Positions 8,951-51,023 of a stretch of DNA of 64,000 nt are shown piece after piece. The stretch comes from Phycisphaeraceae bacterium. Its GTDB lineage: Bacteria > Planctomycetota > Phycisphaerae > Phycisphaerales > Phycisphaeraceae. Under the pieces are notes generated by a model. The model had not been told where the DNA came from and did no database searches. It saw only the letters and a list, made by a program, of their open reading frames with translations. The stretch is from NCBI GenBank assembly GCA_963674705.1, contig OY771506.1, positions 672,001 through 736,000 of the forward strand, read 5' to 3'. Both the position numbers and the translations under genes were made by a program. Each line of letters opens with the position of its first letter. Position 1 is the stretch's first letter.

Positions 8951-10377
8951 TGCCAACCACGACAAACAATCTCGACGCCGCGGTAAACACACTGACTGAA
9001 TCCGGACTGCACCAGGATGCGGTAGAAACCAAGACAAAAACACTTGCCCGGCTGTACCAGACTCTTGCCAAGGTTAACGACAACCCGGCACGAGCGTACT
9101 TTGTGCCCGGTCGTATTGAAGTGCTGGGCAAGCACGTCGACTACGCCGGCGGCCAGAGCCTGACCTGCGCAACAGAACAAGGCTTCTGCTTCGTCGTCGC
9201 GCCGCGTGATGACTGGCGTGTGCGACTGATCGAACCCGTTCAAATATTAGAAGCCTCATTCCCTTTGGACCCGGAGCTCGAGCCTTTCACCGGAGACTGG
9301 ACGAATTACCCGATGACCGTTGCGAGAAGGGTAGCACGCAACTTTCTACCCAACCATAAAGGCAGGCACGCCGGCTGCGATATCGTATTCAACAGCGATC
9401 TGCCGCAAGCCGCAGGCCTGAGCAGTTCCAGCGCGATGATCATCGGCCTGTTCCTCGCGGTCGCGGAAGTCAATCGGCTTGGGCAGTTGCCCGAATTCAA
9501 GCAGGAAATCCACTCCGATCTCGATATAGCGGGCTATCTCGGTTGCGTCGAGAACGGCTCAAGCTTCGGCGATCTTGCTGGCGATCGCGGCGTCGGCACA
9601 AAGGGCGGCAGCCAGGACCACACCGCCATCCTCTGCGCCCGCGCCAACATGATCGGCCGATTCAATTATCGACCCGTCGAGCTTGTTCAGCGCACCGCTC
9701 TGCCCGAAGGCTACATCTTTGCGATAGGTGTCAGCGGCGTTCACTCACAGAAAACCGCCAACACGCGCGAACAGTACAACCGCGCGTCCGAGCTTGCCGC
9801 GGAAGCCGCACGCATCTGGCGCGAACATACCGGCCGAAACGATGAGCATCTCGCCGCGGCCGCAACATCTTCACCCGACGCCCAGGACCAATTGCGCAAA
9901 CTCATCGTTGATGCCGACAAACCGCTGCGCCAACGCGTCGAGCAGTTCCTCGATGAAAACTATCGCATCGTGCCCGGTGCATGCGAAGCGCTGGAAGCCG
10001 GTGATATGCAAACGTTCGGCTCGCTGACGGACGATTCGCAACGTGGAGCCGAATTAAAACTCGGCAACCAGGTCCCACAGACCGTGTACCTTGCCGACAG
10101 CGCGCGCAAACACGGGGCCGTGGCCGCGAGCGCCTTCGGCGCAGGCTTCGGCGGCAGTGTCTGGGCATTGATCCACGAAGATCAGACCGATGCTTTCTTA
10201 AGCGACTGGTCCGCGGATTACCGGAAGGCCTTCCCTGTTGAATCTGAAAACGCCAGCTTCATCACAACCCGCCCCGCCCCCCCCGCCATGCGGCTGGGGA
10301 TAAATCGACTCCAAGTAAAAAACAAACACCTTGCCTTACACGACGTAAGCCTTCCGACCCAACCGGGTCTGGACTAA
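8950..10377 (+). CDS. GHMP sugar kinase, galactokinase/N-acetylgalactosamine kinase-like
   Basis: PGRIEVLGKHVDYAGG, DLPQAAGLSSSSA, GAGFGGS; start overlaps the upstream stop. Confidence 0.9.
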   Translation: MPTTTNNLDAAVNTLTESGLHQDAVETKTKTLARLYQTLAKVNDNPARAYFVPGRIEVLGKHVDYAGGQSLTCATEQGFCFVVAPRDDWRVRLIEPVQILEASFPLDPELEPFTGDWTNYPMTVARRVARNFLPNHKGRHAGCDIVFNSDLPQAAGLSSSSAMIIGLFLAVAEVNRLGQLPEFKQEIHSDLDIAGYLGCVENGSSFGDLAGDRGVGTKGGSQDHTAILCARANMIGRFNYRPVELVQRTALPEGYIFAIGVSGVHSQKTANTREQYNRASELAAEAARIWREHTGRNDEHLAAAATSSPDAQDQLRKLIVDADKPLRQRVEQFLDENYRIVPGACEALEAGDMQTFGSLTDDSQRGAELKLGNQVPQTVYLADSARKHGAVAASAFGAGFGGSVWALIHEDQTDAFLSDWSADYRKAFPVESENASFITTRPAPPAMRLGINRLQVKNKHLALHDVSLPTQPGLD

Positions 10378-10409
10378 GACATCTAATATAACTTATATTA
10401 GATGTCTTA
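10375..10409. repeat. Perfect 35-bp palindrome, copy 1 (TAAGACATCTAATATAA-C-TTATATTAGATGTCTTA)
   Basis: Read directly; same core at 24807 and 50995. Confidence 0.95.
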
Positions 10410-10692
10410 TGATGGGCCCTTCATGACCCAGGAGGACCGGGCTGATGTGTTTCAAGGGTTGGCGGACCCGATCAGGTCAGAGGTGCCGACCTTACTGAGA
10501 AACAAGCCCCGGACCGCGTCCGGGCTTTTGAACGTTCTCAATCCAACTGGAGTTAGCGCCCCACTTTGACCGTTCCGCTTGATGCCATCTCCACACAGGT
10601 GGTGATTCATGCAGATAGATACATTGTGCGCAGGAATAACGGTTCAAAAACGGCTGGACCGCAAGACCCTCGCCGGGCGAAGTGAAGTCTTA
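10409..10692 (+). pseudogene. Decayed ArsR/SmtB-family HTH regulator remnant
   Basis: Translates ADVFQGLADPIRSEVPTLLRNKPRTASGLL, like the ArsR helix 1-2 consensus DVFxALADPxRxxILxLL; no intact ORF; 3' boundary approximate. Confidence 0.55.
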
Positions 10693-10712
10693 ATTTAGTG
10701 TTGAAAACCAAC

Positions 10713-11918
10713 CTACAACGAATTCACGATCGTGCCTGTCGGCTTGGGCGTACCGGAGCCCGGCACACGTATCTGCTGCATCCTTCCAGTCGACGCCGAT
10801 TCACGTGCGGCCAGGCACATCGCGGCGCTGAGAAGGCCGTCCTTGAGTGTGGATTTGGATTCGGCCTGGCCACGGATCACGTGCAGGAAGTTCTTGACCA
10901 GCACGTGGTCGCCGCCGTGGTGCCCTTCCGCGACGGGCACGTGGATGTCGTCGACCGCCTGGCCGTGATGCTCGGTGACACGGATCTTCTCGGTGAACCA
11001 GTCGAAGTCGAGCGTGGCATAATAGCCGGTGATTCGCGCGCCACGCCGGCCGGCGCTTCGGCGAGAGACGAAGTTCTGCGTGTAGCTCAATTGCGTGGCG
11101 TCGTCATAAAGAACCATCGCGGCCCCGGCGTCCTGATTCTCGATCGAGCTGGAGAACGCGCAGGCATGATCCTTCTTACCCATCCCGCCGTCGTCGCCGC
11201 GCTTGAGAATGTTGGCCGGGCTCTCCGGACACAATTCGGTCTTTGGACATTGTGAGCACATCAGGTTGGCCGGCTCGTTGCCGCCATAAACCTTACGCGT
11301 GCTGGTCGCTGAGATCGCCAGTGGCGTCGCATCCAGCAGGTGGTTGATGTAGTCGAAGTCGTGCGTCGCCTTCTGAAGCCAGAGCCCACCGGTGGTCTGG
11401 TGATCCCGATACCACTGCCCGAAGTACACGCCGCCGTAAGGAACATCATTAAACGCAACAACCTGGTTGATGGTGCCCAACCGCCCGGACTGTACGATCT
11501 CGTTGACGCGCTGGCACAACGGCGTCATACGCAGCGGGAAAGACACCACGACATTCTTATCCCGTCCGTCAAAAGCCTCCGCCAGTTCCGCCAATTGTTT
11601 CGTGGTGATCGAGACGGGTTTTTCCAGAAACAGCGGCTTGCCCAGCGGCGCCAGTTTCACTGCGATCGGTGTGTGCAAATCACAACGTGTCCCAAGCATC
11701 AACGCATCAAAGTCATCCGCGTGTTCGATCAACTCGTCCGTCGAATCGTAGAAGATCGTCTCGTCAAACGGCACGCCCTCTTCTTTGAGATGCGACCGCG
11801 CGTTATCACCATCCGGGTCGGCCACCGCGACCAGCTTGACCTGCGGGTCCATATCCTGCGCGAGCTTGACTAATGATGCGGCTCGTAAACCGGAACCGAT
11901 GACTGCTAAACGGATCAT
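10713..11918 (-). CDS. Gfo/Idh/MocA family oxidoreductase
   Basis: RLAVIGSG, HTPIA..LFLEKPV, GGLWLQKATHDFD, GHHGGD. Confidence 0.9.
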   Translation of the reverse strand: MIRLAVIGSGLRAASLVKLAQDMDPQVKLVAVADPDGDNARSHLKEEGVPFDETIFYDSTDELIEHADDFDALMLGTRCDLHTPIAVKLAPLGKPLFLEKPVSITTKQLAELAEAFDGRDKNVVVSFPLRMTPLCQRVNEIVQSGRLGTINQVVAFNDVPYGGVYFGQWYRDHQTTGGLWLQKATHDFDYINHLLDATPLAISATSTRKVYGGNEPANLMCSQCPKTELCPESPANILKRGDDGGMGKKDHACAFSSSIENQDAGAAMVLYDDATQLSYTQNFVSRRSAGRRGARITGYYATLDFDWFTEKIRVTEHHGQAVDDIHVPVAEGHHGGDHVLVKNFLHVIRGQAESKSTLKDGLLSAAMCLAARESASTGRMQQIRVPGSGTPKPTGTIVNSL

Positions 11919-11997
11919 TGCGTGATTAATCCTGGTAATGGTGAGGCCGGCAAAGCCGTCCGTTCTGCTGCATATCTATCCAAATCGACCGATACGT

Positions 11998-12858
11998 TTA
12001 CCTGTCATTCGCCGGGTTGGTATGACGCGGCCAGAACAGACGCTTGGCCCGTTCGAAGTCAGCCATGGTCATACTCTGCGCTTCGCCGGTGCCTATGATA
12101 TCGGTGGTACGCGCGGCAGGCACTGCGTGCCCATCGGCATAGAGTATATTGATCTTGCCGTTCTGATCGTCAAGCTCGCCGCTGTGTCGACCCCATTCTG
12201 GATAATTCCAAAGTAGCGTTGTCTGCTCAACGTCGCTATTGATTTTGGTTAGTTTGTTCGCCGGGATCCTGTAGTTAGGACTGCGTGTTTCAAACAGGTG
12301 GCCGAAGTAAATCTCACCGGTCAGCAGCAGCTCGGTAGGTGTGAGCATGTTATCGATCGGATGCCAGAGTTGGCCCGGCGTATAAGCGTCGATGCCGTCC
12401 AAGGGTCCGGGGACAGCCGAGTGATTCAAGCCATCCGCAATCGACAGGAACTGGTTCATGCCGTAGCTGCAGGCGACGTTGTTGTTCGGGTCGGTGGATG
12501 GCGCCCCGGTATTCACGACGTAGGGGTATTCGTCAGACGGGCAGACGAGGTTGCTGGTCGCCCCTTCTTCCACACTGCCCACAGCCGCCCCATCCAGGAT
12601 CAGCCGGTGCCACCAGCGGGTTTCAACACCATTCTCCTGGTAGATCGTGTAGGGCAGCAGCCCCTTGTTATTTGTGGCATACGACATCATGGCCACACCG
12701 ATCTGCCGCTGGTTGGATAAACACACAGCCCGCTGAGCGGTTTTCCGTGCCGCGCCCAAGGCCGGCAGCAGGATCCCCACCAGCAGAGCGATGATCGAAA
12801 TGACCACGAGCAACTCGATGAGGGTGAAAGCAAGTGTTCTTGGCCGTGCATGCTTCAT
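11998..12858 (-). CDS. Prepilin-type N-terminal cleavage/methylation protein with H-X9-DG-like C-terminus (DUF1559-like)
   Basis: [29 protein letters not shown]...[11 protein letters not shown]...NILYADGHA. Confidence 0.92.
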
Positions 12859-12928
12859 GACTTGTTATCCTAGTCGTATCGATTAGATGTTACGAATTGA
12901 GGCCCAAAAGCGATGGAATACTGACAAC

Positions 12929-13034
12929 TTGTTAATACGACTTCATATGATAACACCTTGTCAACCCTATTTAAAGCCTATTTTGGTGATTTTGTGAATT
13001 TTCTAGTTGACAATACAAGCTACTCTGATAGATT
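12929..13034. promoter_or_regulatory. Divergent promoter with operator-like boxes TTGTTAATACGA (12929-12940) and TTGACAATACAA (13007-13018); TTGACA-N16-TAGATT sigma70-like promoter just before the regulator ATG
   Basis: Sequence inspection; boxes resemble those at 3170 and 3269. Confidence 0.5.
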
Positions 13035-13040
13035 GGGGGC

Positions 13041-14111
13041 ATGTCCGTGACAGACGTACCAAAATATGAGCAGGTCAAGCGCAGCCTGGTGAAAGAGATC
13101 CAGACTGGGCGCTGGTCACCGGGCAGCCCCTTCCCCTCCGAGAGCCAGTTGCTCCAACGGTACAAGGTCAGCAGGCCGACGCTGATCCGCTCGCTTCAGG
13201 AAATGGTGAGAGACGGCTATCTCTATAGAGAGCAAGGCCGAGGCACGTTCGTTGCCGACCCGAGCAAGAAGCCGGGCACGGATACCGTCGCGGTCTTCAT
13301 CTCCAATGATGTCGCAGCACTCAGCGGCGATGCCCGCGAAGTACAGCTCCGCATTATCAACGGCGTGCAATCCGCGCTAGGCCAAGGCCACCAGGCCATG
13401 ACCGTCCGTCAGGCCGGCCCCAACGTGATTGATCAGGACACTAAATGGTTTCTGGAACAGACTCGCCCCGGCACCGCGCTGGTCATCGAGCCATCGTTTA
13501 ACCCAACATTGATCCGCGATCTTCAAGACCGTGGCTGGAACACATGGGCGCTGAACGAGCCGTGCCCCGGTTGCCACAGCGTCTACATCGATCAGGATTC
13601 GGCAGGCTACCTGGCCGCGAAGTACCTGATCGACCACGGCTGCAAGCGCATCGCCCTGCTCAACGGCCCACAGAATACGTACTGGGGCTTTGAAGCCAGG
13701 CAACAGGGTTATGAACGTGCGTTGCATGAAGCCGGGCTGCAGGTCAATAAAGATCTGATCCGCAACGGCAAGCACGCGATCGACAGTGAAGCCGGCCGAT
13801 CGATGTTTAGAGATTTATTGGATGCGAACACGGAGCCGGACGGTGTGGTCGGCGCCAGTGACGCCAAGGCCATGGGCGCGATCGCCGCCGCCCTGGAAGC
13901 GGGTTTGGCCATCCCGACGGATATTCGGTTTGTGAGTATTGACAACACGTTGGCGGACCGTTCGGACCCGCCGTTATCAGCAGTAGCGCTGCCGTTCACG
14001 CAGTTAGGTGAGCAGGCCGTGATCCAGGCGGGCCAGGCCCGGCAGGGGTCCAAGGGCGCGGTCGCAATGAATATGCAGGTCTGTTTGCAACCTAAACTTA
14101 TCGAGCGCTGA
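13041..14111 (+). CDS. GntR-HTH / LacI-type sugar-binding domain regulator (AraR-like)
   Basis: PKYEQVK...PSESQL..VSRPT..GYLYREQGRGTFV, then periplasmic-binding-protein-like domain (IPTDIRFVSIDN...PPLSAV). Confidence 0.92.
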   Translation: MSVTDVPKYEQVKRSLVKEIQTGRWSPGSPFPSESQLLQRYKVSRPTLIRSLQEMVRDGYLYREQGRGTFVADPSKKPGTDTVAVFISNDVAALSGDAREVQLRIINGVQSALGQGHQAMTVRQAGPNVIDQDTKWFLEQTRPGTALVIEPSFNPTLIRDLQDRGWNTWALNEPCPGCHSVYIDQDSAGYLAAKYLIDHGCKRIALLNGPQNTYWGFEARQQGYERALHEAGLQVNKDLIRNGKHAIDSEAGRSMFRDLLDANTEPDGVVGASDAKAMGAIAAALEAGLAIPTDIRFVSIDNTLADRSDPPLSAVALPFTQLGEQAVIQAGQARQGSKGAVAMNMQVCLQPKLIER

Positions 14112-14161
14112 AACAACGCCGGCGTCGGCGGAGGAATCGCGCAAGTTCTCTGAGGAGGAGA

Positions 14162-14836
14162 GTGATGATGCAACAAGTTCCCAAGTTTATGGCGGGGGCG
14201 TCTCTTGCCCTCGCCCTCGCGGCGGCCGGCACGGCGCAGGCCGGAACGTGGGCCACGATCACCATCGATGACGACTACAGCGATTGGGTAGGCGTCCCTG
14301 TCGTCGACAGTGATCCAGCGGATAACGTCGGCGGCGTCGACTTCTTCGAGGTCCAGATCGCCAACGACGCGGATTACCTCTATGTCCGCAATACGTACCA
14401 CACCGCCAACGCCATCAGCACATTCATGGGCATCGACATCGATGAAGACACCGCAACCGGTTTCAACATCTTCGGCCTGGACCTGATCGGCCAGGATGCC
14501 GGCTGGCAGAACGACTACCCGTTCACCTCCGGTGATGACGTCTTCAATGACGGCTACGGCATGTCCGGCGACTTCTTCGGCATCGGCGCCGGTCTGCTCG
14601 CTCCCTATGGCGACTTCGTTACCCGTGAAATGGCGATCCCGTTGAATGTCACACTCAACGAAGACGGCTCCCCGCTGTTCCCCGACGACACGATCCGGAT
14701 CCTCTTCTGGACCGATAGCGCCGGTGCTGCGGGTGGCGATGTCAGCGCAGTGATTGATTACCAGTTAGCGGTTCCCGAGCCGGCAAGCCTCGCGCTGCTG
14801 GGATTGGGCGGCCTGGCGATGCTTCGGCGTCGCTGA
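14162..14836 (+). CDS. PEP-CTERM surface protein with a single beta-sandwich (DOMON/CBM9-like) domain
   Basis: Signal peptide, RBS GAGGAG, C-terminal VPEPASLALLGLGGLAMLRRR; fold assignment is inference. Confidence 0.88.
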   Translation: MMMQQVPKFMAGASLALALAAAGTAQAGTWATITIDDDYSDWVGVPVVDSDPADNVGGVDFFEVQIANDADYLYVRNTYHTANAISTFMGIDIDEDTATGFNIFGLDLIGQDAGWQNDYPFTSGDDVFNDGYGMSGDFFGIGAGLLAPYGDFVTREMAIPLNVTLNEDGSPLFPDDTIRILFWTDSAGAAGGDVSAVIDYQLAVPEPASLALLGLGGLAMLRRR

Positions 14837-15019
14837 ACAATTTGGCCCGACATGACACCCGTTCATGGGCACGACCGCTGATCGTCGGCCCAAAAGGTAT
14901 CTAGTGGCCAAAACAACATTCAAACAAGTGAGTCTTTTCGTTAACGCGAATCGACTCACCTTCGACGGAAACGTACTTCAGGATTCATGTCATTGAGAAC
15001 CGTACAAGGACACACAACC

Positions 15020-16009
15020 ATGCATACCCGAAATGCACTCTTGTTGACCACCGCTGTCTTGACCTGCCTGCCGACTTCCAGCGCCTATGCCGGCTCGCTC
15101 GAAACCCAGAACAACCTCGTCGCCAATGGAGCGATCTACGTCGAGGCACTGGACTCCGACCGAACCGATTGGGACAGCATCACACCTTATCAGGCCGATG
15201 TGGACGCGGTGATCCCCGTGCTGAGCTACGGCACGATCAGCATCGCACACGACGACAACAACTTCTACTTCCGTCTGCAGATGGATCATTACGAAGAAGG
15301 AAACGCTGACCAATCCTGGTTCGGTGCTCACCACCAGATCCTCATCGATATCGACCAGAACCGCAGCACCGGCTGGATCGGCGGTGACGGCGACACAGGC
15401 ACCGATGATGACTACTTCGGCATCGGTGCCGATATTCTTATCGAGGGCCCGGCCGTGCATAAATACGGCAACCTCTCGAATCCCGGCGGCGCCAACCAGG
15501 AACTGTGGACATGGGCCAACCTCGTCCCGTGGGGCTTCGTAACCTATGACGACAGCCCGCCAAGCGACATCGAGATCATGATCCCCCGCTCGGACCTGCA
15601 GAACGCCACAGCGTTTAACTTCATCTGCGTAACTACCGACGCCACTTTCGTCACCACCGATGTCTACCCGACTACCGGTGTCTTCGATCCTCTGACACAG
15701 ACCGAAGCCGACGCTCAGTACTTTACCTACGACATGAGCTATGTCGATCCGGGCGTCGATGGCGACCTCAACGGCGACGGCTTCGTCGGCCTCGATGACC
15801 TGGACATCATCCTCACCAACTGGAACCAGAATGTGACCGTGGGCGATCAAGCCGATCCGAGCGGTGACGGTTACGTCGGCTTGGATGACCTGGACTTCGT
15901 TTTGAATAACTGGAACGCCGGGACACCCCCCGCTTCCGTCGTGCCCGAACCGGCAACACTCGCACTACTGGGCTTCGGTGGGATGGCCCTGCTGAGAAAA
16001 CGCCGGTAA
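15020..16009 (+). CDS. PEP-CTERM protein with shared beta-sandwich domain and dockerin-like module
   Basis: Signal peptide; IAHDDNNFYFR..IDIDQNRSTGW; duplicated GDGFVGLDDLD; VPEPATLALLGFGGMALLRKRR; alternative start 14987. Confidence 0.88.
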   Translation: MHTRNALLLTTAVLTCLPTSSAYAGSLETQNNLVANGAIYVEALDSDRTDWDSITPYQADVDAVIPVLSYGTISIAHDDNNFYFRLQMDHYEEGNADQSWFGAHHQILIDIDQNRSTGWIGGDGDTGTDDDYFGIGADILIEGPAVHKYGNLSNPGGANQELWTWANLVPWGFVTYDDSPPSDIEIMIPRSDLQNATAFNFICVTTDATFVTTDVYPTTGVFDPLTQTEADAQYFTYDMSYVDPGVDGDLNGDGFVGLDDLDIILTNWNQNVTVGDQADPSGDGYVGLDDLDFVLNNWNAGTPPASVVPEPATLALLGFGGMALLRKRR

Positions 16010-16031
16010 TACTCCCTCCGTGGTGAGGCGC

Positions 16032-16067
16032 ATGCGCGGGCGCCCGTTCAACGACGGACGCCCGCAT
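16032..16067 (+). terminator. GC-rich hairpin after PEP-CTERM gene
   Basis: GCGGGCGCCCGT...ACGGACGCCCGC stem; no clear U-tract. Confidence 0.35.
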
Positions 16068-16168
16068 TCATCTGGGGGATGAATGACAACGAATGAAGTG
16101 CGTTGCCGGAAATGGTCGGCGAACAATCGCCAACGAAGATACTTAATACCACAGACAAGGAGCCCTAC

Positions 16169-17776
16169 GTGCGGTTACCCCTTGCCATCCGATTCGCTTG
16201 CCCGCTGCTTGCCGTCGTGCTGTTAGGCCAGGCCAAAGCCAGCGCCGACCTCACCGCGATCGTGCCGGCCTACTTCTACCCCACCACCAACAGCCCGTGG
16301 GATGACCTCACCACCGCCGCCTCACGCATCCCCGTCACCGCGATCATGAATCCCGGCAGCGGCCCCGGCTCATCACAAGACTCGAACTACGTCAACGCCG
16401 TCGACACCTTCCGCACTGCAGGCGGAAAAGTGATCGCCTACGTTTACACCTCCTACGGCTCACGATCATCCGCACAAGTCAAGGCCGACATCGACAAGTA
16501 CGTCAACTGGTACAACATCGATGGCATCTTCTTCGATGAGTTCTCCAACGCCTCGTCCACCAGCACCCTGAATTACTACCAAGACCTCTACGACTACGTC
16601 AAAGGGATCAATTCGACGTGGGAAGTCATGGGCAACCCGGGCACGAACACCGTCGAGTCTTATTTGACGAGACCCGCTGCCGACAGCTTGCTTGTTTTTG
16701 AAAACTACGGCAGCAGTTACACCAGCTACACCCCCTCCGCGTGGAACTACAACTACGATTCCTCACAGATCGGCCACCTGATTCATACCACCAGCAGTGA
16801 AGCAGACATGCTCACTTACCTCGACCTTGCTGTATCTCGTAACGCGGGTCAGGTCTACATCACCGATGATGTGATGAATAACCCCTGGGACACGCTGCCT
16901 TCCTATTGGGACGCGGAAGTCGACCGCATCGAGCAGATCAATAACGGCAATATCGATCCCCCACCGACCGGTGGTACGACGTTAAGTAACCCGGTCGCTA
17001 ACGGCTCGATCGTCGTCACTACCACCGATCGTTCCGACTGGGCCGACATCCCCGCATACGATGCGGACGGCTCAGAAACCGGCGGCGTCGAAGTCGATTA
17101 CGAAACCATCCAGATCGCGCACGACGACACCAACTTCTACTTCCGCATGCTGCTCAACAGCTCTGTTTCGCTCAGCTATAAGCACAACGTCCTGATCGAT
17201 GTCGACTTCGACCGCGATACAGGCTTCATCGGCGGGGCCGGGCAGTTCGCTGTCGGCGCGGAGTATCTGCTGCAAGGCTCAAACGTCTACGAATTCACCG
17301 GCAGTTCACAAGGCGCGTGGAGTTGGAACTACCTGGGCACGATGTCTGTCAACGCCACGCCTAATACCGATATCGAAACGCTGATCCCCCGATCACTGAT
17401 CGGCAATCCTGACGGCTTTGACTTCGTCCTGTTTGCTGACAACGCCACCGTGGATATCGATTACTACCCGAACGTTGATCTTGACGCGTTCCGCTACCTG
17501 ATCGATATGCCTCTGGTCGGCGATCTGGATGGTGACGGCTTCGTCGGATTAAGCGACCTGGACATCGTCCTTAGCGCGTGGAACCAGACCGTCACTGCGG
17601 GCGACCTAGCCGCCGGCGACCCCTCCGGCGACGGCTTCGTCGGCCTCGACGACCTGGACCTGATCCTCAGCAACTGGAACGCGGGCACAGCGCCGACCAA
17701 TTCCAACAACATCCCCGAGCCTTCGACCTTGCTGCTTTTAAGCGCCGCCGGTGTTGCTACACTCTGCCGACGATAA
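16169..17776 (+). CDS. Spherulin-4 (GH135-like) glycoside hydrolase + beta-sandwich + dockerin-like + PEP-CTERM
   Basis: IVPAYFYP, AIMNPGSGPG, KVIAYVYTSYG, IDGIFFDE, NPGT, NPWDTLPSYW typical of spherulation-specific family 4; GTG start after AAGGAG; IPEP tail. Confidence 0.85.
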   Translation: MRLPLAIRFACPLLAVVLLGQAKASADLTAIVPAYFYPTTNSPWDDLTTAASRIPVTAIMNPGSGPGSSQDSNYVNAVDTFRTAGGKVIAYVYTSYGSRSSAQVKADIDKYVNWYNIDGIFFDEFSNASSTSTLNYYQDLYDYVKGINSTWEVMGNPGTNTVESYLTRPAADSLLVFENYGSSYTSYTPSAWNYNYDSSQIGHLIHTTSSEADMLTYLDLAVSRNAGQVYITDDVMNNPWDTLPSYWDAEVDRIEQINNGNIDPPPTGGTTLSNPVANGSIVVTTTDRSDWADIPAYDADGSETGGVEVDYETIQIAHDDTNFYFRMLLNSSVSLSYKHNVLIDVDFDRDTGFIGGAGQFAVGAEYLLQGSNVYEFTGSSQGAWSWNYLGTMSVNATPNTDIETLIPRSLIGNPDGFDFVLFADNATVDIDYYPNVDLDAFRYLIDMPLVGDLDGDGFVGLSDLDIVLSAWNQTVTAGDLAAGDPSGDGFVGLDDLDLILSNWNAGTAPTNSNNIPEPSTLLLLSAAGVATLCRR

Positions 17777-17810
17777 ACTGTTGAGCAAATAATTAGCGCG
17801 TATCCTCATC

Positions 17811-19424
17811 ATGAAAAACATTTGCCTGTTGTTCACCGCCCTGACCGTACTCGCTGGGTCGACCGTGTCTACTTCCGCTGCCATACAGACATTCACGCCC
17901 GATGACGGACGCCTGTTCGCCAATCCCGAGCGCGGGATGTACTACCACGTCGGCTCAACCTCAGAGCAGGATGTGATCCAGCCGTGGATGTTCAATGTCA
18001 TGGAAAACAGCAACATGACCTTGATGCTCCGGCTGTACTATCTCGAAGACTTCAAGAACCAGCCGTTAAGCCAGACACAACTGGACATCATCAGCAACGA
18101 CTTCGCACAGATGCGCCAGGCGGGCGTCAAGACGATCCTGCGCTTCGCCTATAGCAACGACATCGGCGTATCGGATGCGCCCTTGAGCGTCGTACTCAAC
18201 CACATGGACCAGCTCGCACCGATCATTCAGGCTAATGCCGATGTCATCGCGACCGCGCAGGCGGGCTTCATCGGCGCATGGGGTGAATGGCATTCCTCAA
18301 CCAACAACCTCACCGACCCCGCCAACGCACGACAGATCACGGATAAATGGCTTGATATCCTCCCGCCGGAAAGAACCATCCAGATCCGCACACCCGCGTT
18401 AAAACAAATGATTACGCAGAACACCGCCGCTCTGACCTCCGGCGAAGCGTTCACCGATACCGCCAAAGCCCGCATCGGCCACCACAACGACTGCTTCCTG
18501 GCAAGCGAAACCGACTTCGGCACGTATACCAACCCCGTAGCCGACAAGGCTTGGCTCAACCTCGAAACACAGTTCCTCCCGATGGGCGGCGAAACCTGCG
18601 CCACCAGCTCCCGTTCCGGCTGCGACATCGCACGCGTCGAAATGGCGCAGCTTCACTTCAGCTACCTCAATAGCGGCTACCACCCGGACGTCCTCGCCGA
18701 CTGGGAATCGGACGGCTTCCTCGACGAGGTAAAACAAAAACTCGGCTACCGGTTCGAGCTTGTCTTGGCTGAATACGAACCGGCCGCAACAACAGGCTCG
18801 CAATTGCCCATCTCGCTCGACCTTGTGAACACCGGCTGGGCATCCCCCTACAACCCGCGCGACGTCGTCCTCACGCTCCAATCGCTCGACGGCCTGACCG
18901 AATACGCATTCTCGCTCGATGAAGACCCACGCACATGGCTGCCCGACAGCACCATCAACATCAACGCCATGCTCGACCTGCCCGCCGACATGCCCGAAGG
19001 AAACTACCACCTGCTGTTCTCTTTACCCGACCCCATGGCGGCTATCAATCACCGCCCCGAATACGCGATCCAACTGGCAAACCCCGGCCTGTGGGACGCA
19101 GCCACCGGCAAACACGACCTCGGCATCACCATCGCCATCACAACCGCTCTCCAAGGCGACCTCAACGCCGACGGCTTCGTCGGACTCGATGACCTGGACA
19201 TCATCCTCAGCGCATGGAACCAGAACGTCACTGCCGGCGACACGGCCGCAGGCGATCCTTCCGGCGACGGCTTCGTCGGCCTCGACGATCTGGATGTCGT
19301 CTTGAACAACTGGAACGCCGGCAACCCACCGGGCAGCAGCGTGCCTGAGCCGGGCGCAATCCTGATCGCGGGTTCACTTGTATCGGTCTTGATTCAACGA
19401 AGACCGTCGTCTGCATGCGGATAA
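17811..19424 (+). CDS. DUF4874/DUF4832-type protein with dockerin-like module and PEP-CTERM
   Basis: ANPERGMY, GFIGAWGEWH, RIGHHNDCF, MGGETC; VPEPG tail; paralogue of 3336..4703. Confidence 0.85.
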   Translation: MKNICLLFTALTVLAGSTVSTSAAIQTFTPDDGRLFANPERGMYYHVGSTSEQDVIQPWMFNVMENSNMTLMLRLYYLEDFKNQPLSQTQLDIISNDFAQMRQAGVKTILRFAYSNDIGVSDAPLSVVLNHMDQLAPIIQANADVIATAQAGFIGAWGEWHSSTNNLTDPANARQITDKWLDILPPERTIQIRTPALKQMITQNTAALTSGEAFTDTAKARIGHHNDCFLASETDFGTYTNPVADKAWLNLETQFLPMGGETCATSSRSGCDIARVEMAQLHFSYLNSGYHPDVLADWESDGFLDEVKQKLGYRFELVLAEYEPAATTGSQLPISLDLVNTGWASPYNPRDVVLTLQSLDGLTEYAFSLDEDPRTWLPDSTININAMLDLPADMPEGNYHLLFSLPDPMAAINHRPEYAIQLANPGLWDAATGKHDLGITIAITTALQGDLNADGFVGLDDLDIILSAWNQNVTAGDTAAGDPSGDGFVGLDDLDVVLNNWNAGNPPGSSVPEPGAILIAGSLVSVLIQRRPSSACG

Positions 19425-19615
19425 GCTCGCACATACTGTATTAACGAAGCAACTTAAGACAATTCAATCCGGGCGGTATCACATCAACAAGTCGCAACAA
19501 AGTTGTGCAAAAAGCCCACAAACATCCTCGACTGGCCCTCGGTCGCCGGGTATCCTCTTACGATAGTCGGCTTCATCTATCTCGCCGGCAAGGGCAATCG
19601 ATCAGGAGGCTCAAC

Positions 19616-20266
19616 ATGAAGGATCAGCGGGATACACCTGTTACCCCCGCAGGCGGCGGATTCTCAAGGCGTGGTTTTATCAAAGGCGTCGGCGGCGCAG
19701 TCGGTGTCGCAGCGCTCGGCACAGTCGCGCGCGGCCAGGATGAAAAAGAACCCACTGGCCCCATCAAACGCGGCGGACTCACCATCTACCCCGCCAAGGA
19801 CGTCGACATCACACTCAATATCAACGGCCAAGACACCAAGCTGCACGTGCTGCCATCCGCAACACTGCTTGAAGTCATCCGCGAACAAGCCGACCTCACC
19901 GGCAGCAAGGAAGTCTGCAGCCGAGGTGCTTGCGGCGCGTGTACCGTCCTGCTTGATGGCAAAAGCATCAATAGCTGCCTGACGCTCGCCGTCGACGCAG
20001 TCGGCAAAAAGATCAAGACCGTCGAAGGCCTTAGCGACGGCGACAAGCTCGATCCGGTGCAGCAGGCCTTCATCGACCACGACGCGTGCCAATGCGGTTA
20101 TTGCATCCCTGGCTTCGTCGTGCGTTCCCGTGCGTTGCTCGATGAATTCCCGAACGCCGATAGCCAGCAAATCCGCGAAGGCTTAAGCGGCAACATCTGC
20201 CGATGCGCTGCATACGTCCGCATCTTCGAAGCGGTTGGATCGGCCGCGAAGGGAGGTGGCGCATGA
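19616..20266 (+). CDS. XDH/aldehyde oxidoreductase 2Fe-2S subunit with Tat signal (PaoA/YagT-like)
   Basis: SRRGFIK twin-arginine motif; CSRGACGACTV, CQCGYC, GNICRC; RBS AGGAGG before ATG 19616. Confidence 0.92.
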   Translation: MKDQRDTPVTPAGGGFSRRGFIKGVGGAVGVAALGTVARGQDEKEPTGPIKRGGLTIYPAKDVDITLNINGQDTKLHVLPSATLLEVIREQADLTGSKEVCSRGACGACTVLLDGKSINSCLTLAVDAVGKKIKTVEGLSDGDKLDPVQQAFIDHDACQCGYCIPGFVVRSRALLDEFPNADSQQIREGLSGNICRCAAYVRIFEAVGSAAKGGGA

Positions 20267-22338
20267 GCTACCGCGAAGACAATCACGTCGCCTACGAAAA
20301 CGAAGCCGTCCGCCTGGACATCCGTGAGAAAGTCACGGGTAAGGCGAAGTACACCACGGACTACTACCCTAAAGATATGCTCTGGGCCGGCTACATCCGC
20401 TGCCCGTACGGCGTGGGGCAGTTGCGATCCTTCGACAAAGACGCAGCACTCAAAGTGCCGGGCGTGCTTGAAGTCGAAATAACGAAGCGAGAAGGCGCCT
20501 ATGCAGGCGACCGCATGGGTCACATCTGCGCCGAATCCCGACAAGCCTACGAAGCGGGCTTAGCGGCGCTGAACGCACAATTCCGCTCGGGTTTTGCCAA
20601 GACAGACCCGAAGATGGAAATGACCCCGCTCGATCAAATCCAGCAACCCGACAATCTGCCGCAAGCAAACAAGGTCCTCGAAGACGCCGCCGTCGTCGTC
20701 GAAGCAACCTACCAGACGCAGGTGCAGACCCACTGCTGCCTCGAGCCGCACATCGGCATGGTCGACTTCAAGGGCGATCACGCCACCGCATGGGGCTCGA
20801 CGCAAGGCACGTTCTCGTTCCGCAACGATCTTGCAGGCACGCTCGGGCTGAACAACAGCGATGTCGAGTTCCACTGCGAATACATCGGCGGCGGGTTCGG
20901 CAGCAAGTTTGGCGCAGGCGCTGAAGGCACACTCGCCGCACAGATGAGCAAAAAGTACAAACGACCCTGCCGCGTCGGGCTATCACGCAAAGAAGAGCAA
21001 CTCGACTCCGGCAACCGCCCCGGCAGCATCCAGATGGCAAAGATCGGTGCAACCAAGGACGGCAAACTCCTCGGCGGCCGCGTTCACATCGCGGGTGTCG
21101 TCGGCCCTACGGGCGGCGGCGGCGGCGCACGCAACCCATCGCGGTACAACTTCGGCACCGTCGCCACGACCCATGAGGATGTGCACCTCAACGCCGGCTA
21201 CCCACGAGCCATGCGCGCACCGGGCCACCCGCAAGGCGTGTTCGGCGTCGAAATGATGATGGAAGAGCTGGCCGCCAAACTCGGTATGGACCCCCTCGAA
21301 TTCCGACTCAAAAACGATCCACACGAAAACCGCCGAGAGATGCTAAAGGTCGGCGCGGAAATGATCGGCTGGAACCGTCGCAAACCGAATGGTTCAAGCG
21401 AAGGCCCGATCAAGCGCGGGCTCGGCGTCGCCGTCGCGGACTGGGGCAACGGGCCCGGTGGCGCAACCGTCACTGTCGAAGTCTACCCGGATGGCACAGT
21501 CGTCGCCCTCTCCGGCAGCCAGGACATCGGCACCGGCTTCCGCACCATGCTCGGCGACTGCGTGCTGCATCAGATGGGCCTGCCTCGCAAATTCCTGAAA
21601 GTCAAAGTCGGCAACAGCACACTCCCGCCCGGCCCCGCAAGCGGCGGCTCCGTCACCAGCCGATTCGTCGCGCCAAAAGCGCTCGGCGCAGCCGACCAGG
21701 CCAGACAGGCAATCCTCAAACTCGTCGCACAGGAATGGCAGACCGATGCGGCCGGCCTCTCCATCGCCGACGGCGTTATCCGTAACGGCTCGCGCGAAAT
21801 GGCTTGGCAACAAGCATGCCGACTCATCACCGATGATCGCTTGACTTTCAGTTCATCCGAAGATGGCGCGTTCCGCACCCGCCCGACGGATAGCGACGCC
21901 GTCCAATTCGTTGAAGTCGAGGTCGATACCGAAACCGGCATCGTCCGCGTGATCAAGGTCGTCGCCCTTCAGGATGTGGGCCAGCCGGTCAATCGACACA
22001 CGGTCGAAAACCAGATCACCGGCGCGGTCATCCAAGGCCTGAGCTTCGCACTTTTTGAAGACCGCACGCTCGACCCAACGCTCGGCGCGATGGTGAACGC
22101 GGATATGGAGTACTACAAGATCGCCGGACCCGCCGATGTGCCCAAGATCGTGCCCGTGTTGTGGATCTCGCGTGATGATGTCTCGGTCAACAGCCTGGGC
22201 GAACCGCCTGTCATCCCGACGCCCGGCGCAATCGGTTGTGCGGTGTTTAACGCGATCGGCGCACCGGTGCGTCAGATGCCGATCACGCCGGCCCGTGTGC
22301 TTGAAGCAATCGCCGGTATGGAAGGAGGCCGGGCATGA
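20263..22338 (+). CDS. XDH-family molybdopterin-binding subunit (PaoC/YagR-like)
   Basis: EKVTGKAKY, IGGGFGSK, AMRAPGHPQG, QDIGTG, LGEPPVIP; ATGA overlap with upstream gene. Confidence 0.92.
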   Translation: MSYREDNHVAYENEAVRLDIREKVTGKAKYTTDYYPKDMLWAGYIRCPYGVGQLRSFDKDAALKVPGVLEVEITKREGAYAGDRMGHICAESRQAYEAGLAALNAQFRSGFAKTDPKMEMTPLDQIQQPDNLPQANKVLEDAAVVVEATYQTQVQTHCCLEPHIGMVDFKGDHATAWGSTQGTFSFRNDLAGTLGLNNSDVEFHCEYIGGGFGSKFGAGAEGTLAAQMSKKYKRPCRVGLSRKEEQLDSGNRPGSIQMAKIGATKDGKLLGGRVHIAGVVGPTGGGGGARNPSRYNFGTVATTHEDVHLNAGYPRAMRAPGHPQGVFGVEMMMEELAAKLGMDPLEFRLKNDPHENRREMLKVGAEMIGWNRRKPNGSSEGPIKRGLGVAVADWGNGPGGATVTVEVYPDGTVVALSGSQDIGTGFRTMLGDCVLHQMGLPRKFLKVKVGNSTLPPGPASGGSVTSRFVAPKALGAADQARQAILKLVAQEWQTDAAGLSIADGVIRNGSREMAWQQACRLITDDRLTFSSSEDGAFRTRPTDSDAVQFVEVEVDTETGIVRVIKVVALQDVGQPVNRHTVENQITGAVIQGLSFALFEDRTLDPTLGAMVNADMEYYKIAGPADVPKIVPVLWISRDDVSVNSLGEPPVIPTPGAIGCAVFNAIGAPVRQMPITPARVLEAIAGMEGGRA

Positions 22339-23291
22339 AACCATTTACTTACGAAGTCGCAGACGATCTGGATAGCGCTCTGACCGTCCTCAACAACCAG
22401 CGCACGCTCAAGGCAGGCGGGCTCGACCTGGTCGACCGCATGAAAGAACGTATCGAACTGCCCGACACGATCGTCTCGATCGGTGGCATCGATGCGCTTC
22501 GCTACATCAAGGAAGATGGCAACACGATCCGCATCGGTTGCCTTTCAACGCTCGCCGACATCGGGCGCAGCAAGATGCTGGCCGAACGCTTCCCCGCGTT
22601 TCACGAATCCGCCGGCGGCGCAGCTACGCCGCAGGTACGCGAGCAAGCCACGCTCGGCGGCAACCTCTGCCAGCGCCCGCGCTGCTGGTACTTCCGCAGC
22701 ATCGACTTCGATTGCCTGAAAAAAGGCGGCGGCACGTGCTACGCCATCGAAGGGGAAAACCGTTACCACGCCGTGATCGGCGGCGGCCCTTGTCACATCG
22801 TTCACCCGTCCAACTGCGCCCCGCCGTTGGTCGCGGCCGATGCCGAATTTGTTATTAAAAGCGCCAAGGGCGAACGCACCGTCAAAGCTGCCGACTTCTT
22901 CAAGCTCCCGCGCGAATCCATGTACGCGGAGAACCAGCTCGAAGAAGGCGAAGTCCTTGCCGAAGTCGTCATCCCCAACGTGCCGACGCATAGCGCAAGC
23001 GTGGAGCTGCGCGAAAAACAATCATTCGACTGGCCCATGGCGATGGCGTCCGCCGCAAAAGTCAACGGCCAATGGCGCATCTGCCTCGGCGCCGTCGCGC
23101 CGATCCCCTGGCTCAGTCAGCCCGCTATGAACGTGGTCGGCTCATCCGACATCACGTCCGAGCTTGCGGCCAAAGCAGGCGAAGCTGCCGCTGAAGAAGC
23201 TGAGCCGATGGCGCAAAATGCATACAAAGTCCAACTGATTAAGGTTGCGGTAAAACGTGCGCTGCTCATCGCATCAGGTAAACAAGTGTAA
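22335..23291 (+). CDS. XDH-family FAD-binding subunit with 4Fe-4S insert (PaoB/YagS-like)
   Basis: AGGLDLVD, ATPQVREQATLGGNLCQRPRCWYFR...CLKKGGGTC, HPS. Confidence 0.92.
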   Translation: MKPFTYEVADDLDSALTVLNNQRTLKAGGLDLVDRMKERIELPDTIVSIGGIDALRYIKEDGNTIRIGCLSTLADIGRSKMLAERFPAFHESAGGAATPQVREQATLGGNLCQRPRCWYFRSIDFDCLKKGGGTCYAIEGENRYHAVIGGGPCHIVHPSNCAPPLVAADAEFVIKSAKGERTVKAADFFKLPRESMYAENQLEEGEVLAEVVIPNVPTHSASVELREKQSFDWPMAMASAAKVNGQWRICLGAVAPIPWLSQPAMNVVGSSDITSELAAKAGEAAAEEAEPMAQNAYKVQLIKVAVKRALLIASGKQV

Positions 23292-23305
23292 GAAGAAGAA
23301 GAACG

Positions 23306-23404
23306 TTCACCGCGGAGGACGCAGAGATCGCAGAGATGAATTAAAGCAGATTAATCTCGATTCATTTGTTTTAACTCTGCGTCCTCTGCGCTCTCTGCGG
23401 TGAA
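23306..23404. repeat. Intergenic inverted repeat of CGCAGAG-type units
   Basis: TTCACCGCGGAGGACGCAGAGATCGCAGAG ... CTCTGCGTCCTCTGCGCTCTCTGCGGTGAA. Confidence 0.8.
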
Positions 23405-23427
23405 TCCAAGTTTCAGGAGGCATCTAT

Positions 23428-23685: not shown

Positions 23686-23739
23686 AAAGCATTTGATAAC
23701 CGCGAAGGCGCGAAGCGATTGCGAAGTTATGATAGGTTG

Positions 23740-24750: not shown

Positions 24751-24806
24751 AACGTCGTGTCCGCCTCACGCCCGGTGCAGACCCGAAGCCCTGTCGATTC
24801 CCGCTA

Positions 24807-36073: not shown

Positions 36074-36970
36074 TCACTTCCCCAGACTTCTCATCACCGA
36101 CGCCGCAAGCTTCTCCCCAGCCAAACGATTAAATCGGAACAGCAACTCCGGCTCAAACAACTCAACCTCCATCACCGTCGGCTTATGGTCCGCGCTATAC
36201 AAAACATCCACACGCGCATAATGCAGTTTCCCCGGGCAAACTTTCACAACATCTTCGGCAAATCGCTTCTCTGGTTCGCTGGCGGTATGTGCCACCGCAT
36301 ACCCACCATGATCGTCCTGCACACGGAACTCACCCGCTTTTGCCAGCTTCCTGACCGCGTGCGTGAACCGCCCATCGATCACGATCAACGACAACTCCCC
36401 CTGCTCAACAATCGCCGGCAGGAACGGCTGCACCATCATCGTCTTGGCCGCTATCAACGACTGGAACTTCGGCTCGAACGCTTTGGCGCCCGCTTTGGAT
36501 ACCCTGAACGTATCCACCCCTCCCGCCGACATCGCGGGCTTGATGACTAACTCATCACATGCCAATTCCGAAAACAACCGCCCCAGCTCTGCTTGTGTCG
36601 ACCGTTCAACAAACAACGTAGGAACCGTCATCACCCCCTTCTCCGCCAACTCCAACAGGTAACGCTTCTCCTGGTTCCACTTGATCACCTCATACGGATT
36701 CACCAACGGCAGCTTGTCACGCACATACTCAAGCCATTCATTGAACGGCCCGGGCTTCTCAAGGTAATCCCACGTGCTGCGAAACACCCCGCACCCGATC
36801 TTCGACCAGTCTACGTTTGTATCCGACCAACTGATCCGCTCTGCCTTCACACCATGCCGCTTGAAGTAGTCCAGCATGATGCTCTCTTCATAAATCACCT
36901 GCGCGTTATAAAAACTGTGCGGATCAGGATGCAACAGTGCATCACAAGTTAATACAGCAATGTCCAGCAT
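36074..36970 (-). CDS. ATP-grasp ligase, RimK/glutathione-synthetase-like
   Basis: RSTWDY, WNQEKRYL, VIKPAMSAGG, MVQPFL, FRVQDDHGG, YARVD, MEVELFEPEL. Confidence 0.88.
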   Translation of the reverse strand: MLDIAVLTCDALLHPDPHSFYNAQVIYEESIMLDYFKRHGVKAERISWSDTNVDWSKIGCGVFRSTWDYLEKPGPFNEWLEYVRDKLPLVNPYEVIKWNQEKRYLLELAEKGVMTVPTLFVERSTQAELGRLFSELACDELVIKPAMSAGGVDTFRVSKAGAKAFEPKFQSLIAAKTMMVQPFLPAIVEQGELSLIVIDGRFTHAVRKLAKAGEFRVQDDHGGYAVAHTASEPEKRFAEDVVKVCPGKLHYARVDVLYSADHKPTVMEVELFEPELLFRFNRLAGEKLAASVMRSLGK

Positions 36971-47250: not shown

Positions 47251-47274
47251 TCCAACACACTTGGATATCCCTGC

Positions 47275-49136: not shown

Positions 49137-49192
49137 GCAAAGAATAATTACTTCACGCCACACGTTTCTTTTCCCTCGGATTGAGTACATTC

Positions 49193-50704
49193 ATGCCATA
49201 TACATTTTTAAAACGTAACCACTCGTTTGCTTCTGCTCTTCTGTTCAGCGTCTTAGCGTTGACGCTCTCCGGCTGCCTCGGCCGAGGCACCGTCGATGAG
49301 CCGACCCAACTTTCACTCGCCGAAAAACTCGACACAATCCTGCACAGCAAGGCAGACACCGGCGCGATCGTCTCCGCTCGCTTCGTCGAAGTACCCAGCG
49401 GCAACGTCATCTACGAAACCGAAAACACCGACTATCCGTTCAAGCCCGCGAGCAACATGAAACTCACCGTCACGTCCGCCGGCCTGGACTTCTACGGCTC
49501 GGACCACACCTTCAAAACCTACCTCGCGCTCGACGGTAAAGACCTCTGGATCATCGGGACAGGCGACCCCGCGACCGGTGACCCGAGACTCGCCAAAGCA
49601 GCCGGTGGCGACCCGACCACCATGCTCGGTGATTGGGCCAAAGCCCTCAAAGATCGCGGCATCACGCAGATCGACGGCGACATCGTCTACGACGATCTCA
49701 TCTTCGATAAGTTCTACATCCACCCGTCGTGGTGGCCCAGCAACCTCCTGCACTGGTACGCGGCCCCGGTCTCCGGCCTCGCGTTCAACGATAACTGCGT
49801 CGACATCACAGTCACCCCGGCAGAAGAAGGCGAGCCCGCCAACTACACCGTCATGCCCCCGGTCGAGAACATCGAGGTCATCAACAACACGATCTGCGGC
49901 GGTGAAGAAAACAACCCTTCAATCGTCAAGAAAACCGGCGGCAACATCTACGTCATCTCGGGCCCGGTCACCAAAGAAACCGAACTGAAAAGTAAACCCG
50001 TCGAAGACCCCGGCGCGTTCTTCGCCGATGCACTGAAAACAAAACTGAAAGCCGAAGGCATCGAAGTGACGGGCAAAATCCGCCGCGCCGAAGCGCACCT
50101 CGATGGCAGCCTGGTCCCCTCCGATGACAAGATCGTCGCGGTCCACGAATCCACGATCGCGGATGTGCTCTCGCGCATCAACAAGCAGAGCCAGAACCTG
50201 TTCGCCGAAATGCTCTGTAAGTCGATGGGACATGACTATCAACTTAAGCGTGGTAAAAACGAGCCCGGCTCCTGGCTAAACGGCAGCTTCGTGATCGAAA
50301 AGTTCTTCGCAGAACACGGCATCAACGCGCACCCGCTCGTCGTCACCGACGGCTCGGGACTCAGCGATAACAACCGCGTCACCACCAAGATGATCAGCGA
50401 AATATTCCTTGTGATGCACGACCACAAGGACGCCAAGGTCTTCTGGGACAGCCTCACCATCGGCGGCATCGACGGCACGATCGGTAGCCGATTCAAAGAG
50501 GTAAAAGGTAGAGTACGTGGCAAGACCGGCTTCATCGACGGCGTCCGCTCACTCTCCGGCTACGTCGAAACCGACGCCGGCCCCACCGTCATCTTCTCCA
50601 TCATCTATAACCAGATCCCCGATTCCGTCAAACCCTTCGAGCAACTGCAAGACGAAGCCGTCATGCTCATCATGCACGAATACAAACCCACCGATACGCA
50701 ATAA
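49193..50704 (+). CDS. dacB: D-Ala-D-Ala carboxypeptidase/endopeptidase, PBP4 (peptidase S13), lipoprotein
   Basis: PASNMK (SxxK), GTGDP, SQN, DGSGLS, GKTG; lipobox LSGC. Confidence 0.92.
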   Translation: MPYTFLKRNHSFASALLFSVLALTLSGCLGRGTVDEPTQLSLAEKLDTILHSKADTGAIVSARFVEVPSGNVIYETENTDYPFKPASNMKLTVTSAGLDFYGSDHTFKTYLALDGKDLWIIGTGDPATGDPRLAKAAGGDPTTMLGDWAKALKDRGITQIDGDIVYDDLIFDKFYIHPSWWPSNLLHWYAAPVSGLAFNDNCVDITVTPAEEGEPANYTVMPPVENIEVINNTICGGEENNPSIVKKTGGNIYVISGPVTKETELKSKPVEDPGAFFADALKTKLKAEGIEVTGKIRRAEAHLDGSLVPSDDKIVAVHESTIADVLSRINKQSQNLFAEMLCKSMGHDYQLKRGKNEPGSWLNGSFVIEKFFAEHGINAHPLVVTDGSGLSDNNRVTTKMISEIFLVMHDHKDAKVFWDSLTIGGIDGTIGSRFKEVKGRVRGKTGFIDGVRSLSGYVETDAGPTVIFSIIYNQIPDSVKPFEQLQDEAVMLIMHEYKPTDTQ

Positions 50705-50766
50705 CGTGCCCTTTCAATAGCCGCGAGCTGCCAGCTCGCGCGCCAATGAACAGCCCCCACATATAG

Positions 50767-50790
50767 CCCGACCACCGCGGTCGGGTTTTT
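50767..50790 (+). terminator. Rho-independent terminator
   Basis: GCCCGACC-ACCGC-GGTCGGG-TTTTT. Confidence 0.65.
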
Positions 50791-50994
50791 CTTTTACCCC
50801 TATTTTTCCCGATAAAAACGCTCGCTCGGCGCGGGCCTCCCGACCCCGCCGCCCCCTTAGCCCCCGGCTTGCCGGGGGTACCCAACCCGCACTTCATTCA
50901 ACAACAAACAACACACCCCATCAGCCGGGACCAAAGGTCTAGCTATAGCACGAACCAAAAGCCCGAATCCCATCCCCTCACCAACCCCGCTCAA

Positions 50995-51023
50995 GACATC
51001 TAATATAAGTTATATTAGATGTC
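50995..51023. repeat. Perfect 29-bp palindrome, copy 3 (GACATCTAATATAA-G-TTATATTAGATGTC)
   Basis: Read directly. Confidence 0.95.

Follow-up and report, generated by a model that had tools for sequence, protein, structure and literature searches.

What are three perfect palindromes doing between converging genes of a planctomycete chromosome, and where did they come from? The palindromes lie in a 64,000-nucleotide stretch (hereafter the window) of the genome of a Phycisphaeraceae bacterium (contig OY771506.1, positions 672,001 to 736,000). An earlier note on this stretch had described three copies with identical 14-bp arms and had offered, as possible functions, a chromosome-organisation site, a tyrosine-recombinase site or a titration site for an ArsR-like factor. 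Direct reading confirmed the three copies exactly (Table 1). Comparison of the genome of the window (G000; 5.54 Mb, 56.6% G+C) with its relatives indicates that the palindromes are very probably dispersed copies of the operator of an ArsR-type regulator. As the best overall explanation we propose, tentatively, that they are dispersed, symmetrised sites from an arsR promoter, predicted to be bound by the ArsR protein and possibly acting as two-way transcription roadblocks at gene ends.

Origin of the palindromes in an arsR promoter

The window copies are perfect inverted repeats, each with a 1-nt centre, and their common 14-nt arm has six exact matches in the window, compared with 1.6 expected by chance even when three mismatches are allowed. 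The flanks, which had been read as diverged around an unchanged palindrome, are indeed diverged but not unrelated, since copies 1 and 2 run into decayed 5′ ends of arsR-type genes (74-78% identity across ~100 nt).

An intact solo ArsR-type gene that carries the site on its own promoter was found at G000:2166020-2166338, and its product has 95 residues. Here a copy with four mismatches (G000:2166020) stands between TTGACA and ATG and covers the TATATT box (TTGACA-18-TATATT). This promoter is the sole promoter match (11/12) in a 1.9-kb stretch that holds four copies. The search for a copy in front of an intact arsR gene, which the earlier note had proposed, therefore succeeded, and its ArsR option gained support. 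Because the promoter copy is imperfect and decayed arsR starts lie behind copies 1 and 2, the palindrome can be traced to the arsR operator. Such remnants follow 4 of 21 dispersed copies in G000, 6 of 28 in its sister genome G004 and 0 of 14 in the relative G007. In the dispersed copies the right arm is now symmetric with the left and the -35 box has been lost in 40 of 42 arms, only two arms keeping at least four of its six positions. These results trace the site to the arsR promoter region and show that neither the -35 box nor the gene has survived in the dispersed copies. Six symmetric double changes among the G004 copies suggest arm-to-arm correction.

The encoded protein is matched by Pfam HTH_5 and HTH_20 and, above the cut-off, by NCBIfam NF033788 (ArsR/SmtB). 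Its model is a plain winged helix with no space for a catalytic domain (predicted local distance difference test 90), and the closest solved folds are SrnR (7p6f; Foldseek E 1e-6, template modelling (TM) score 0.8) and the RHA1 proteins 3f6o and 2oqg. No invariant or nearly invariant cysteine of a metal site was found in 25 aligned members of its clade. The clade genes are solo, at many unrelated gene junctions, with no linked resistance or partner gene. A paralogue at G000:1392044 has a different operator, with four dispersed copies.

Copies across the genome

Scanning the genome and its relatives for the motif, as had been suggested, returned 22 copies in G000 and related variants in relatives that hold the clade. 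At up to four mismatches, 15 of the G000 copies are perfect, four have one mismatch, two have two and one has four. None occurs at 5-7 mismatches, the next match being at 8, and a tail of decaying copies is therefore absent. Every arm of the dispersed copies retains the TATATT hexamer. The 27-bp core had no exact match among viral contigs, an Rfam search of four loci gave nothing near the gathering score, and extension of the sites into their flanks as a long degenerate palindrome gave no general signal (mean z 0.1-0.6).

A second family in G000, of 16 perfect odd-centred palindromes (408407, 525526, 979662 and 13 more), is G+C-rich and shows no outward bias in base composition.

Co-occurrence with a clade of regulators

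The exact motif was present in 2 of 41 genomes searched (G000 and G004, 25 copies). Related solo genes in relatives have a similar palindrome in the corresponding place, located 14-19 bp ahead of the start in 33 of 33 clade genes. From these operators a 13-bp core pattern was derived and counted in 144 genomes of the family; it gave 6-35 matches in ten of them and 0-3 elsewhere, with 0-2 for the reversed control. A 25-member protein profile (36 candidates scored per genome; cut at 105 bits, chosen in the gap between 109 and 95 bits) exceeded the cut in 12 of the 144 genomes, including all ten with an amplified core. Amplification therefore accompanies 10 of 12 clade-bearing genomes in the family and 0 of 132 others. 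Both exceptions hold variant copies (G009, 16 versus 3 in the control; G005, 12 versus 4). The pattern reaches another family (G038, 7 versus 2; G033, 8 versus 0) and was also seen in G160 (67 versus 20) and G162 (16 versus 2). Wherever genomes were inspected, the dispersed copies correspond to operators or paralogues of the same genome; G160 has three paralogues and three site types. Searched against 1.8 billion representatives, a profile yielded mainly generic ArsR proteins, without context.

In G009, contig C2 has ~10 dispersed sites with an asymmetric core and an A/T centre (for example 938403, 1907950 and 2783324-2786809). They are unlike both promoter operators listed for G009, and three of them are 1.4-4.9 kb from a Y1 transposase match.

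Recognition helices and operators were compared for 33 distinct clade genes, on a tree built without the helix columns. All 11 genes whose recognition helix begins with glutamine have A at position -4, and the other 22 of 22 have T. Where a Pro-Thr helix lacks glutamine three residues on, the base at -1 is G (11 of 11), which the remaining genes do not have (22/22). The first of these pairs changed jointly about four times on the tree. In helix-turn-helix proteins, glutamine reads adenine. In related Phycisphaerales each clade member has an operator variant of its own, matching its recognition helix. The arsR1 product of G000 groups within the Pro-Thr proteins, with its residue and its base both switched, so the likeness of its site to a XerD arm is no family trait.

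This bears on the idea of a dif-like or other tyrosine-recombinase site, which we regard as the least credible of the readings considered. The right arm of the G000 variant does match the XerD arm at 9 of 11 positions (10 of 11 in the promoter copy). The likeness is confined to this one operator variant and is not kept among relatives, there are 22 copies where a single site near the terminus would be expected, closer dif-like matches exist elsewhere, and gene order across the sites is collinear between G000 and G004. Two candidate dif-like sites, at G000:3098234 (-) and G000:4279316 (-), resemble the XerD pattern more closely than the palindrome does, or lie closer than it to the skew maximum (~4.07 Mb).

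Turnover and conservation in place

G004 is ~94% identical to G000 across shared DNA. Eight of the 17 G004 site regions that were fetched have no site in G000, and five of these are clean empty junctions, with inserts of 305-1089 bp facing 0-36 bp. Conversely, three G000 sites sit within 326-633-bp inserts that are absent from G004, which has other DNA in place of two clusters. No counterpart of G000:3318067 was recovered from the G004 stretches that were fetched. The site-bearing inserts are mosaics of other repeats, with the site at no fixed place within them. One such repeat, the REP-like REP-A, neighbours 9 of 25 G000 sites at up to 300 bp, compared with 1.5% of random intergenic points, and 14 of 29 G004 sites at up to 400 bp; the other 23 repeat seeds are near 0-2 of the 25. 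In four other genomes with amplified sites, none of the 58 loci checked had REP-A, and the carrier therefore differs by lineage. A shared terminal inverted repeat marking element ends was considered and rejected (the candidate motif has 18 matches, near only four sites). At the arsR1 locus, contigs of two sequencing runs retain the site-bearing pieces with the intervening DNA replaced. Across window positions 8500-27000, none of the listed joints in contigs of four runs connects copy 1 to copy 2, although rare variants are lost from contigs.

In G004, a 1.2-kb insertion sequence with a 5-bp duplication interrupts the counterpart of G000:4323312 at the centre of the palindrome (L061, 2720-3947).

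Once established, the copies are held in place. In eight clearly orthologous G000/G004 pairs, 3 of 224 arm positions differ (~1%). The corresponding rates are 91 of 942 (9.7%) in the flanks, 5.9% across intergenic alignments and 14% at four-fold sites, and even against the lowest of them the Poisson P is ~0.001. The promoter copy, the copy 2 gap, whose flanks are not orthologous, and three tandem copies of uncertain pairing were left out of this count. Deviations lie nearly all outside the 13-bp core. Hairpin repair alone would equalise the arms, but it would not be expected to hold their sequence constant. The suggestion of a selected site was borne out here, and the flanks are not as conserved as the core, as simple duplication would have had it. 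G160 contains at least 17 double sites at exactly 23 bp, one of which joins two operator types.

Examples of these doubles are L150 566/589, L154 567/590 and L178 2494/2517. G019 has stacks with 13- and 21-bp spacing.

The turnover could mean that the site is itself a mobilisation signal, a cis element for copying by a transposase or by repair, as REPs are for RAYT, with only intact sites copied and the flank bias described below arising from repeated local resynthesis. The clean empty sites in sister genomes are consistent with this, as are the proximity of REP-A, one copy of which is 436 bp from one of the 14 Y1 transposase matches of G000, and an excess of A>G and C>T in the arsR remnants on the strand leaving the site. 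That each paralogue has one dispersed family also recalls the REPIN groups per RAYT described in the accessible part of PMC3116915. The protein, however, is a winged helix that cannot accommodate a catalytic domain, the site has no fixed position in the inserts, copies are conserved after insertion, and REP-A is missing from the 58 loci in the four other genomes. We consider this reading improbable.

Sites of chromosome architecture, of the matS/MatP or SlmA kind, at which a protein would bridge or anchor distant loci, appear more improbable still. Some 20-60 conserved palindromes per chromosome, off promoters and with a reader of transcription-factor fold, resemble the SlmA case as far as the accessible text of PMC3116907 describes it, and the double sites at a fixed 23 bp would fit. 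Against it, copy spacing in G000 is consistent with uniform (largest gap P = 0.36), with copies near both GC-skew extremes, and the sites are also spread along G160. Of 144 family genomes, 12 have the system, and in those eight G004 regions the site is missing from G000. The chromosome-organisation option of the earlier note thus lost ground, as the sites are not confined to one region and many positions are not shared with the sister genome.

Placement at gene ends and flank composition

Gene calls for the placement analysis came from a dicodon script. Only 1 of 25 sites in G000 and 1 of 50 in G160 lie within 100 bp of a start codon, and divergent gaps are depleted. A conventional regulon, with the copies as operators of neighbouring genes, is therefore very improbable: ArsR proteins usually regulate promoters (PMC3338718, in the part available), and one arsR2-type site is 66 bp from a start codon, but the neighbours share no function and differ between genomes. 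Convergent gaps, by contrast with divergent ones, are enriched. They hold 9-10 of 20 sites in G000 (background 12%), 22-23 of 30 in G160, 11 of 14 in G007, 12 of 19 in G004 and 3 of 5 in G019. The statement that all copies are convergent is true of the three window copies, whose flanking genes all have a Pfam match, and fails genome-wide.

On either side of the site, the outward-running strand is enriched in G and T over ~80 bp, and the bias fades beyond. The incoming transcript is therefore C-rich and G-poor, and C exceeds G in 122 of 141 arms from five genomes. Control sets of 1311 trailers, 63 promoter-like sites and 274 AT-rich spots of G000 showed no such bias. A bidirectional promoter was rejected as an explanation, given the 40 of 42 arms without a -35 box and the absence of this compositional bias from ordinary promoters and 3′ trailers.

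In Escherichia coli, C>G stretches of ~78 nt precede Rho termination (PMC6144790, accessible part), and DNA-bound proteins impede RNA polymerase (10.64898/2026.04.06.716678, likewise in part). Rho is present in 5 of 5 genomes tested. Taken together with the C>G incoming flanks, these points suggest a roadblock. A second, shorter Rho-like gene, below the TIGR00767 cut-off, was seen in 5 of 5 genomes (G000:14571-15737 and counterparts).

The mechanism that we propose has five steps. The first three draw on the results above: the site arose from the arsR promoter, its copies losing the -35 box and the gene; copies are gained or lost between sister genomes in repeat-rich inserts, presumably travelling as cargo of REP-type mobile DNA; and established copies are conserved far beyond their flanks. 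In the fourth step an ArsR dimer would bind the copies, and its own imperfect promoter site would be repressed only once the better dispersed sites were filled, with the consequence that protein supply would follow site number; we infer this whole step with high confidence. The fifth step is held more cautiously, as plausible but short of probable: the bound dimer may stall RNA polymerase from either side, and the C-rich, G-poor 80 nt may let Rho release the transcript, which would insulate convergent genes.

Several observations weigh against this reading. The 12 clade genomes of the family represent two genera, and 11 of them, all but G091, fed the profile; in G161 a clade gene goes with only 2 matches, and G010 has two sites with no clade gene found. 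The helix-operator correspondence comprises only two independent helix-base pairs on well-supported branches, with traits picked after inspection of the data, so that significance is unreachable. When the three uncertain tandem pairs are added to the conservation count, arms diverge by ~4.5% and flanks by ~15%. As to placement, only 2 of 12 sites are convergent in G002, on short contigs. In a comparison covering G000, ten other repeat seeds are 13-41% convergent (REP-A 41%), so part of the convergent enrichment is generic, and the 45-50% convergence in G000 may merely reflect safe landing places. The flank bias is also present on 34 of 50 arms without an incoming gene and on 29 of 33 arms upstream of arsR promoters. 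In G000 it depends on the replication strand no less than on the incoming gene, with a leading-strand term of +0.25 and an incoming-gene term of +0.21 ± 0.07 (50 non-independent arms). The bias in the arsR remnants stems from transitions only, with transversions not rut-favouring, which suits a mutational cause.

A rival possibility, which we think unlikely, is that the copies are bound passengers or decoys, ArsR sites spread as cargo into harmless gaps where they merely soak up repressor. Conservation could then follow if an unbound, half-mutated AT-rich palindrome with -10-like boxes on both strands were worse than a covered one, or if site number set the repressor level. The data on origin, co-occurrence and conservation fit this reading too, as does the TATATT hexamer in every arm; convergent enrichment in G000 is only slightly above that of REP-A, and added, engineered decoy sites titrate a bacterial regulator (PMC8599769, accessible part). 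On the other side, no target gene beyond arsR was found, so titration would have no evident output, and passengers do not predict the incoming-transcript term or the 73-79% convergence in G160 and G007. Of the titration option of the earlier note, the ArsR part therefore stands; pure titration is possible but leaves convergent placement and flank composition unaccounted for.

Features of the window

Table 1. Palindrome copies, associated repeats and remnants, and flanking genes (positions in the window)
Feature	Position	Strand	Remarks
Operator copy 1	10375-10409		35-bp perfect palindrome, 17-nt arms; 29-bp core 10378-10406
Operator copy 2	24807-24839		33-bp perfect palindrome, 16-nt arms; core 24809-24837
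Operator copy 3	50995-51023		29-bp perfect palindrome, 14-nt arms; arsR remnant not detectable
Decayed 5′ end of arsR-type gene	10407-10530	+	Resembles residues 4-45 of the intact protein, 60% identity; gene not intact
Short separate intergenic repeat	10531-10544	+	At the end of the arsR remnant; 18 genome-wide matches with at most 1 mismatch
Decayed, frameshifted 5′ end of arsR-type gene	24838-24925	+	Behind copy 2
REP-like repeat REP-A	50823-50846	+	~170 bp left of copy 3; co-occurs with operator copies in G000
Galactokinase-type gene	8950-10377	+	Pfam; ends at copy 1
Gfo/Idh/MocA oxidoreductase gene	10713-11918	-	Pfam; converges on copy 1
GH43 glycoside hydrolase gene	23719-24750	+	Pfam; end 58 bp ahead of copy 2 core
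Thioredoxin-like gene	25162-26358	-	Pfam; converges on copy 2
Peptidase S13 gene	49181-50704	+	Pfam; converges on copy 3
Peptidase S66 (LD-carboxypeptidase) gene	51052-52131	-	Pfam; end 28 bp past copy 3

The stop codon of the galactokinase-type gene is formed by the first three bases of the copy 1 palindrome. In the last 60 bp of this gene (10315-10377), 19 positions differ from G004, so the gene tail beside copy 1 may stem from an insert. G004 has a replacement for the thioredoxin-like gene by copy 2, and contigs of two runs pass over that gene; this gap therefore also exchanges whole genes. ARAGORN called a selenocysteine tRNA at 36446-36537 on the minus strand, within a 298-residue open reading frame; the call may be spurious, because a second was made at G000:1821572. 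Elsewhere in G000, 30 tRNA genes on one strand form a ~12-kb array (G000:622407-634804).

Discussion

The palindromes touch several known systems. Like the ArsR/SmtB autorepressors, for example Rv2034 (PMC3338718, in part), the regulator has a winged helix (TM 0.8) and a palindrome over its own -10 box. Judged from its sequence features, the unit of protein and promoter is an ordinary ArsR autorepressor in kind, without a metal site. It differs from those autorepressors in having no conserved metal-binding cysteines, no co-transcribed partner and a leaderless-like start, and above all in its odd-centred 14-1-14 site, with 5-60 orphan copies per genome far from promoters.

The dispersal recalls REP/REPIN-RAYT systems and TIRtrons, which, in the accessible parts of PMC3116915 and PMC3733652, are likewise dispersed extragenic palindromes present or absent between close relatives, with one family per single-copy gene and mosaics with other repeats. 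Unlike the REP/REPIN-RAYT case, the matching gene here is a repressor and not a transposase, and the AT-rich perfect palindrome is usually single and conserved in place. Neither a GTAG nor a CGTC tag was found by the flanks of all 22 G000 copies, read directly, and no G000 site lies within 3 kb of any Y1 transposase match, as a cluster beside a RAYT gene would. With matS/MatP and SlmA sites (PMC3116907, in part) the copies share their number, tens of conserved palindromes per chromosome for one predicted protein, and the fact that they are not gene operators. In contrast to those sites, they show no regional confinement or exclusion, turn over in position between sister species and are patchy in the family, and the site also stands on the protein's own promoter, with predicted control.

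The flanks may resemble Rho-dependent terminators, as far as PMC6144790 covers them, in the ~80 nt of C>G on the incoming transcript before a predicted fixed obstacle at convergent gene ends, but outgoing arms often share this composition and in G000 it is confounded with the replication strand. Compared with such terminators and with the protein roadblocks covered by the available part of 10.64898/2026.04.06.716678, the obstacle predicted here would differ in being a dedicated DNA-binding protein that regulates its own gene and sits on a symmetric site spread by mobile DNA. A literature search found no account of this element, most subscription papers and supplements lying outside its coverage.

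A more far-reaching version, which we consider doubtful, is that the system forms a family of portable, protein-made bidirectional terminators, in which an ArsR protein without a sensor makes just enough of itself to coat its own operator in tens of copies. Mobile DNA would drop sites between converging genes, both sides of which would then acquire Rho-loading flanks, and each new paralogue would change its recognition helix and seed its own family of sites.

What the copies would represent is a bacterial regulator nearly all of whose predicted sites are orphan, copied from its own promoter, moved by mobile DNA and kept by selection. This would be a natural case of binding-site spread and decoy titration, which are usually studied with engineered plasmids, and the clade offers 33 matched protein-operator pairs with a simple predicted two-position code. 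The roadblock is testable in G160 (Planctomycetales bacterium ZRK34), which is in culture, has a closed genome and carries three such systems. If the roadblock reading is true, these sites would amount to a new way of ending transcription between convergent genes.

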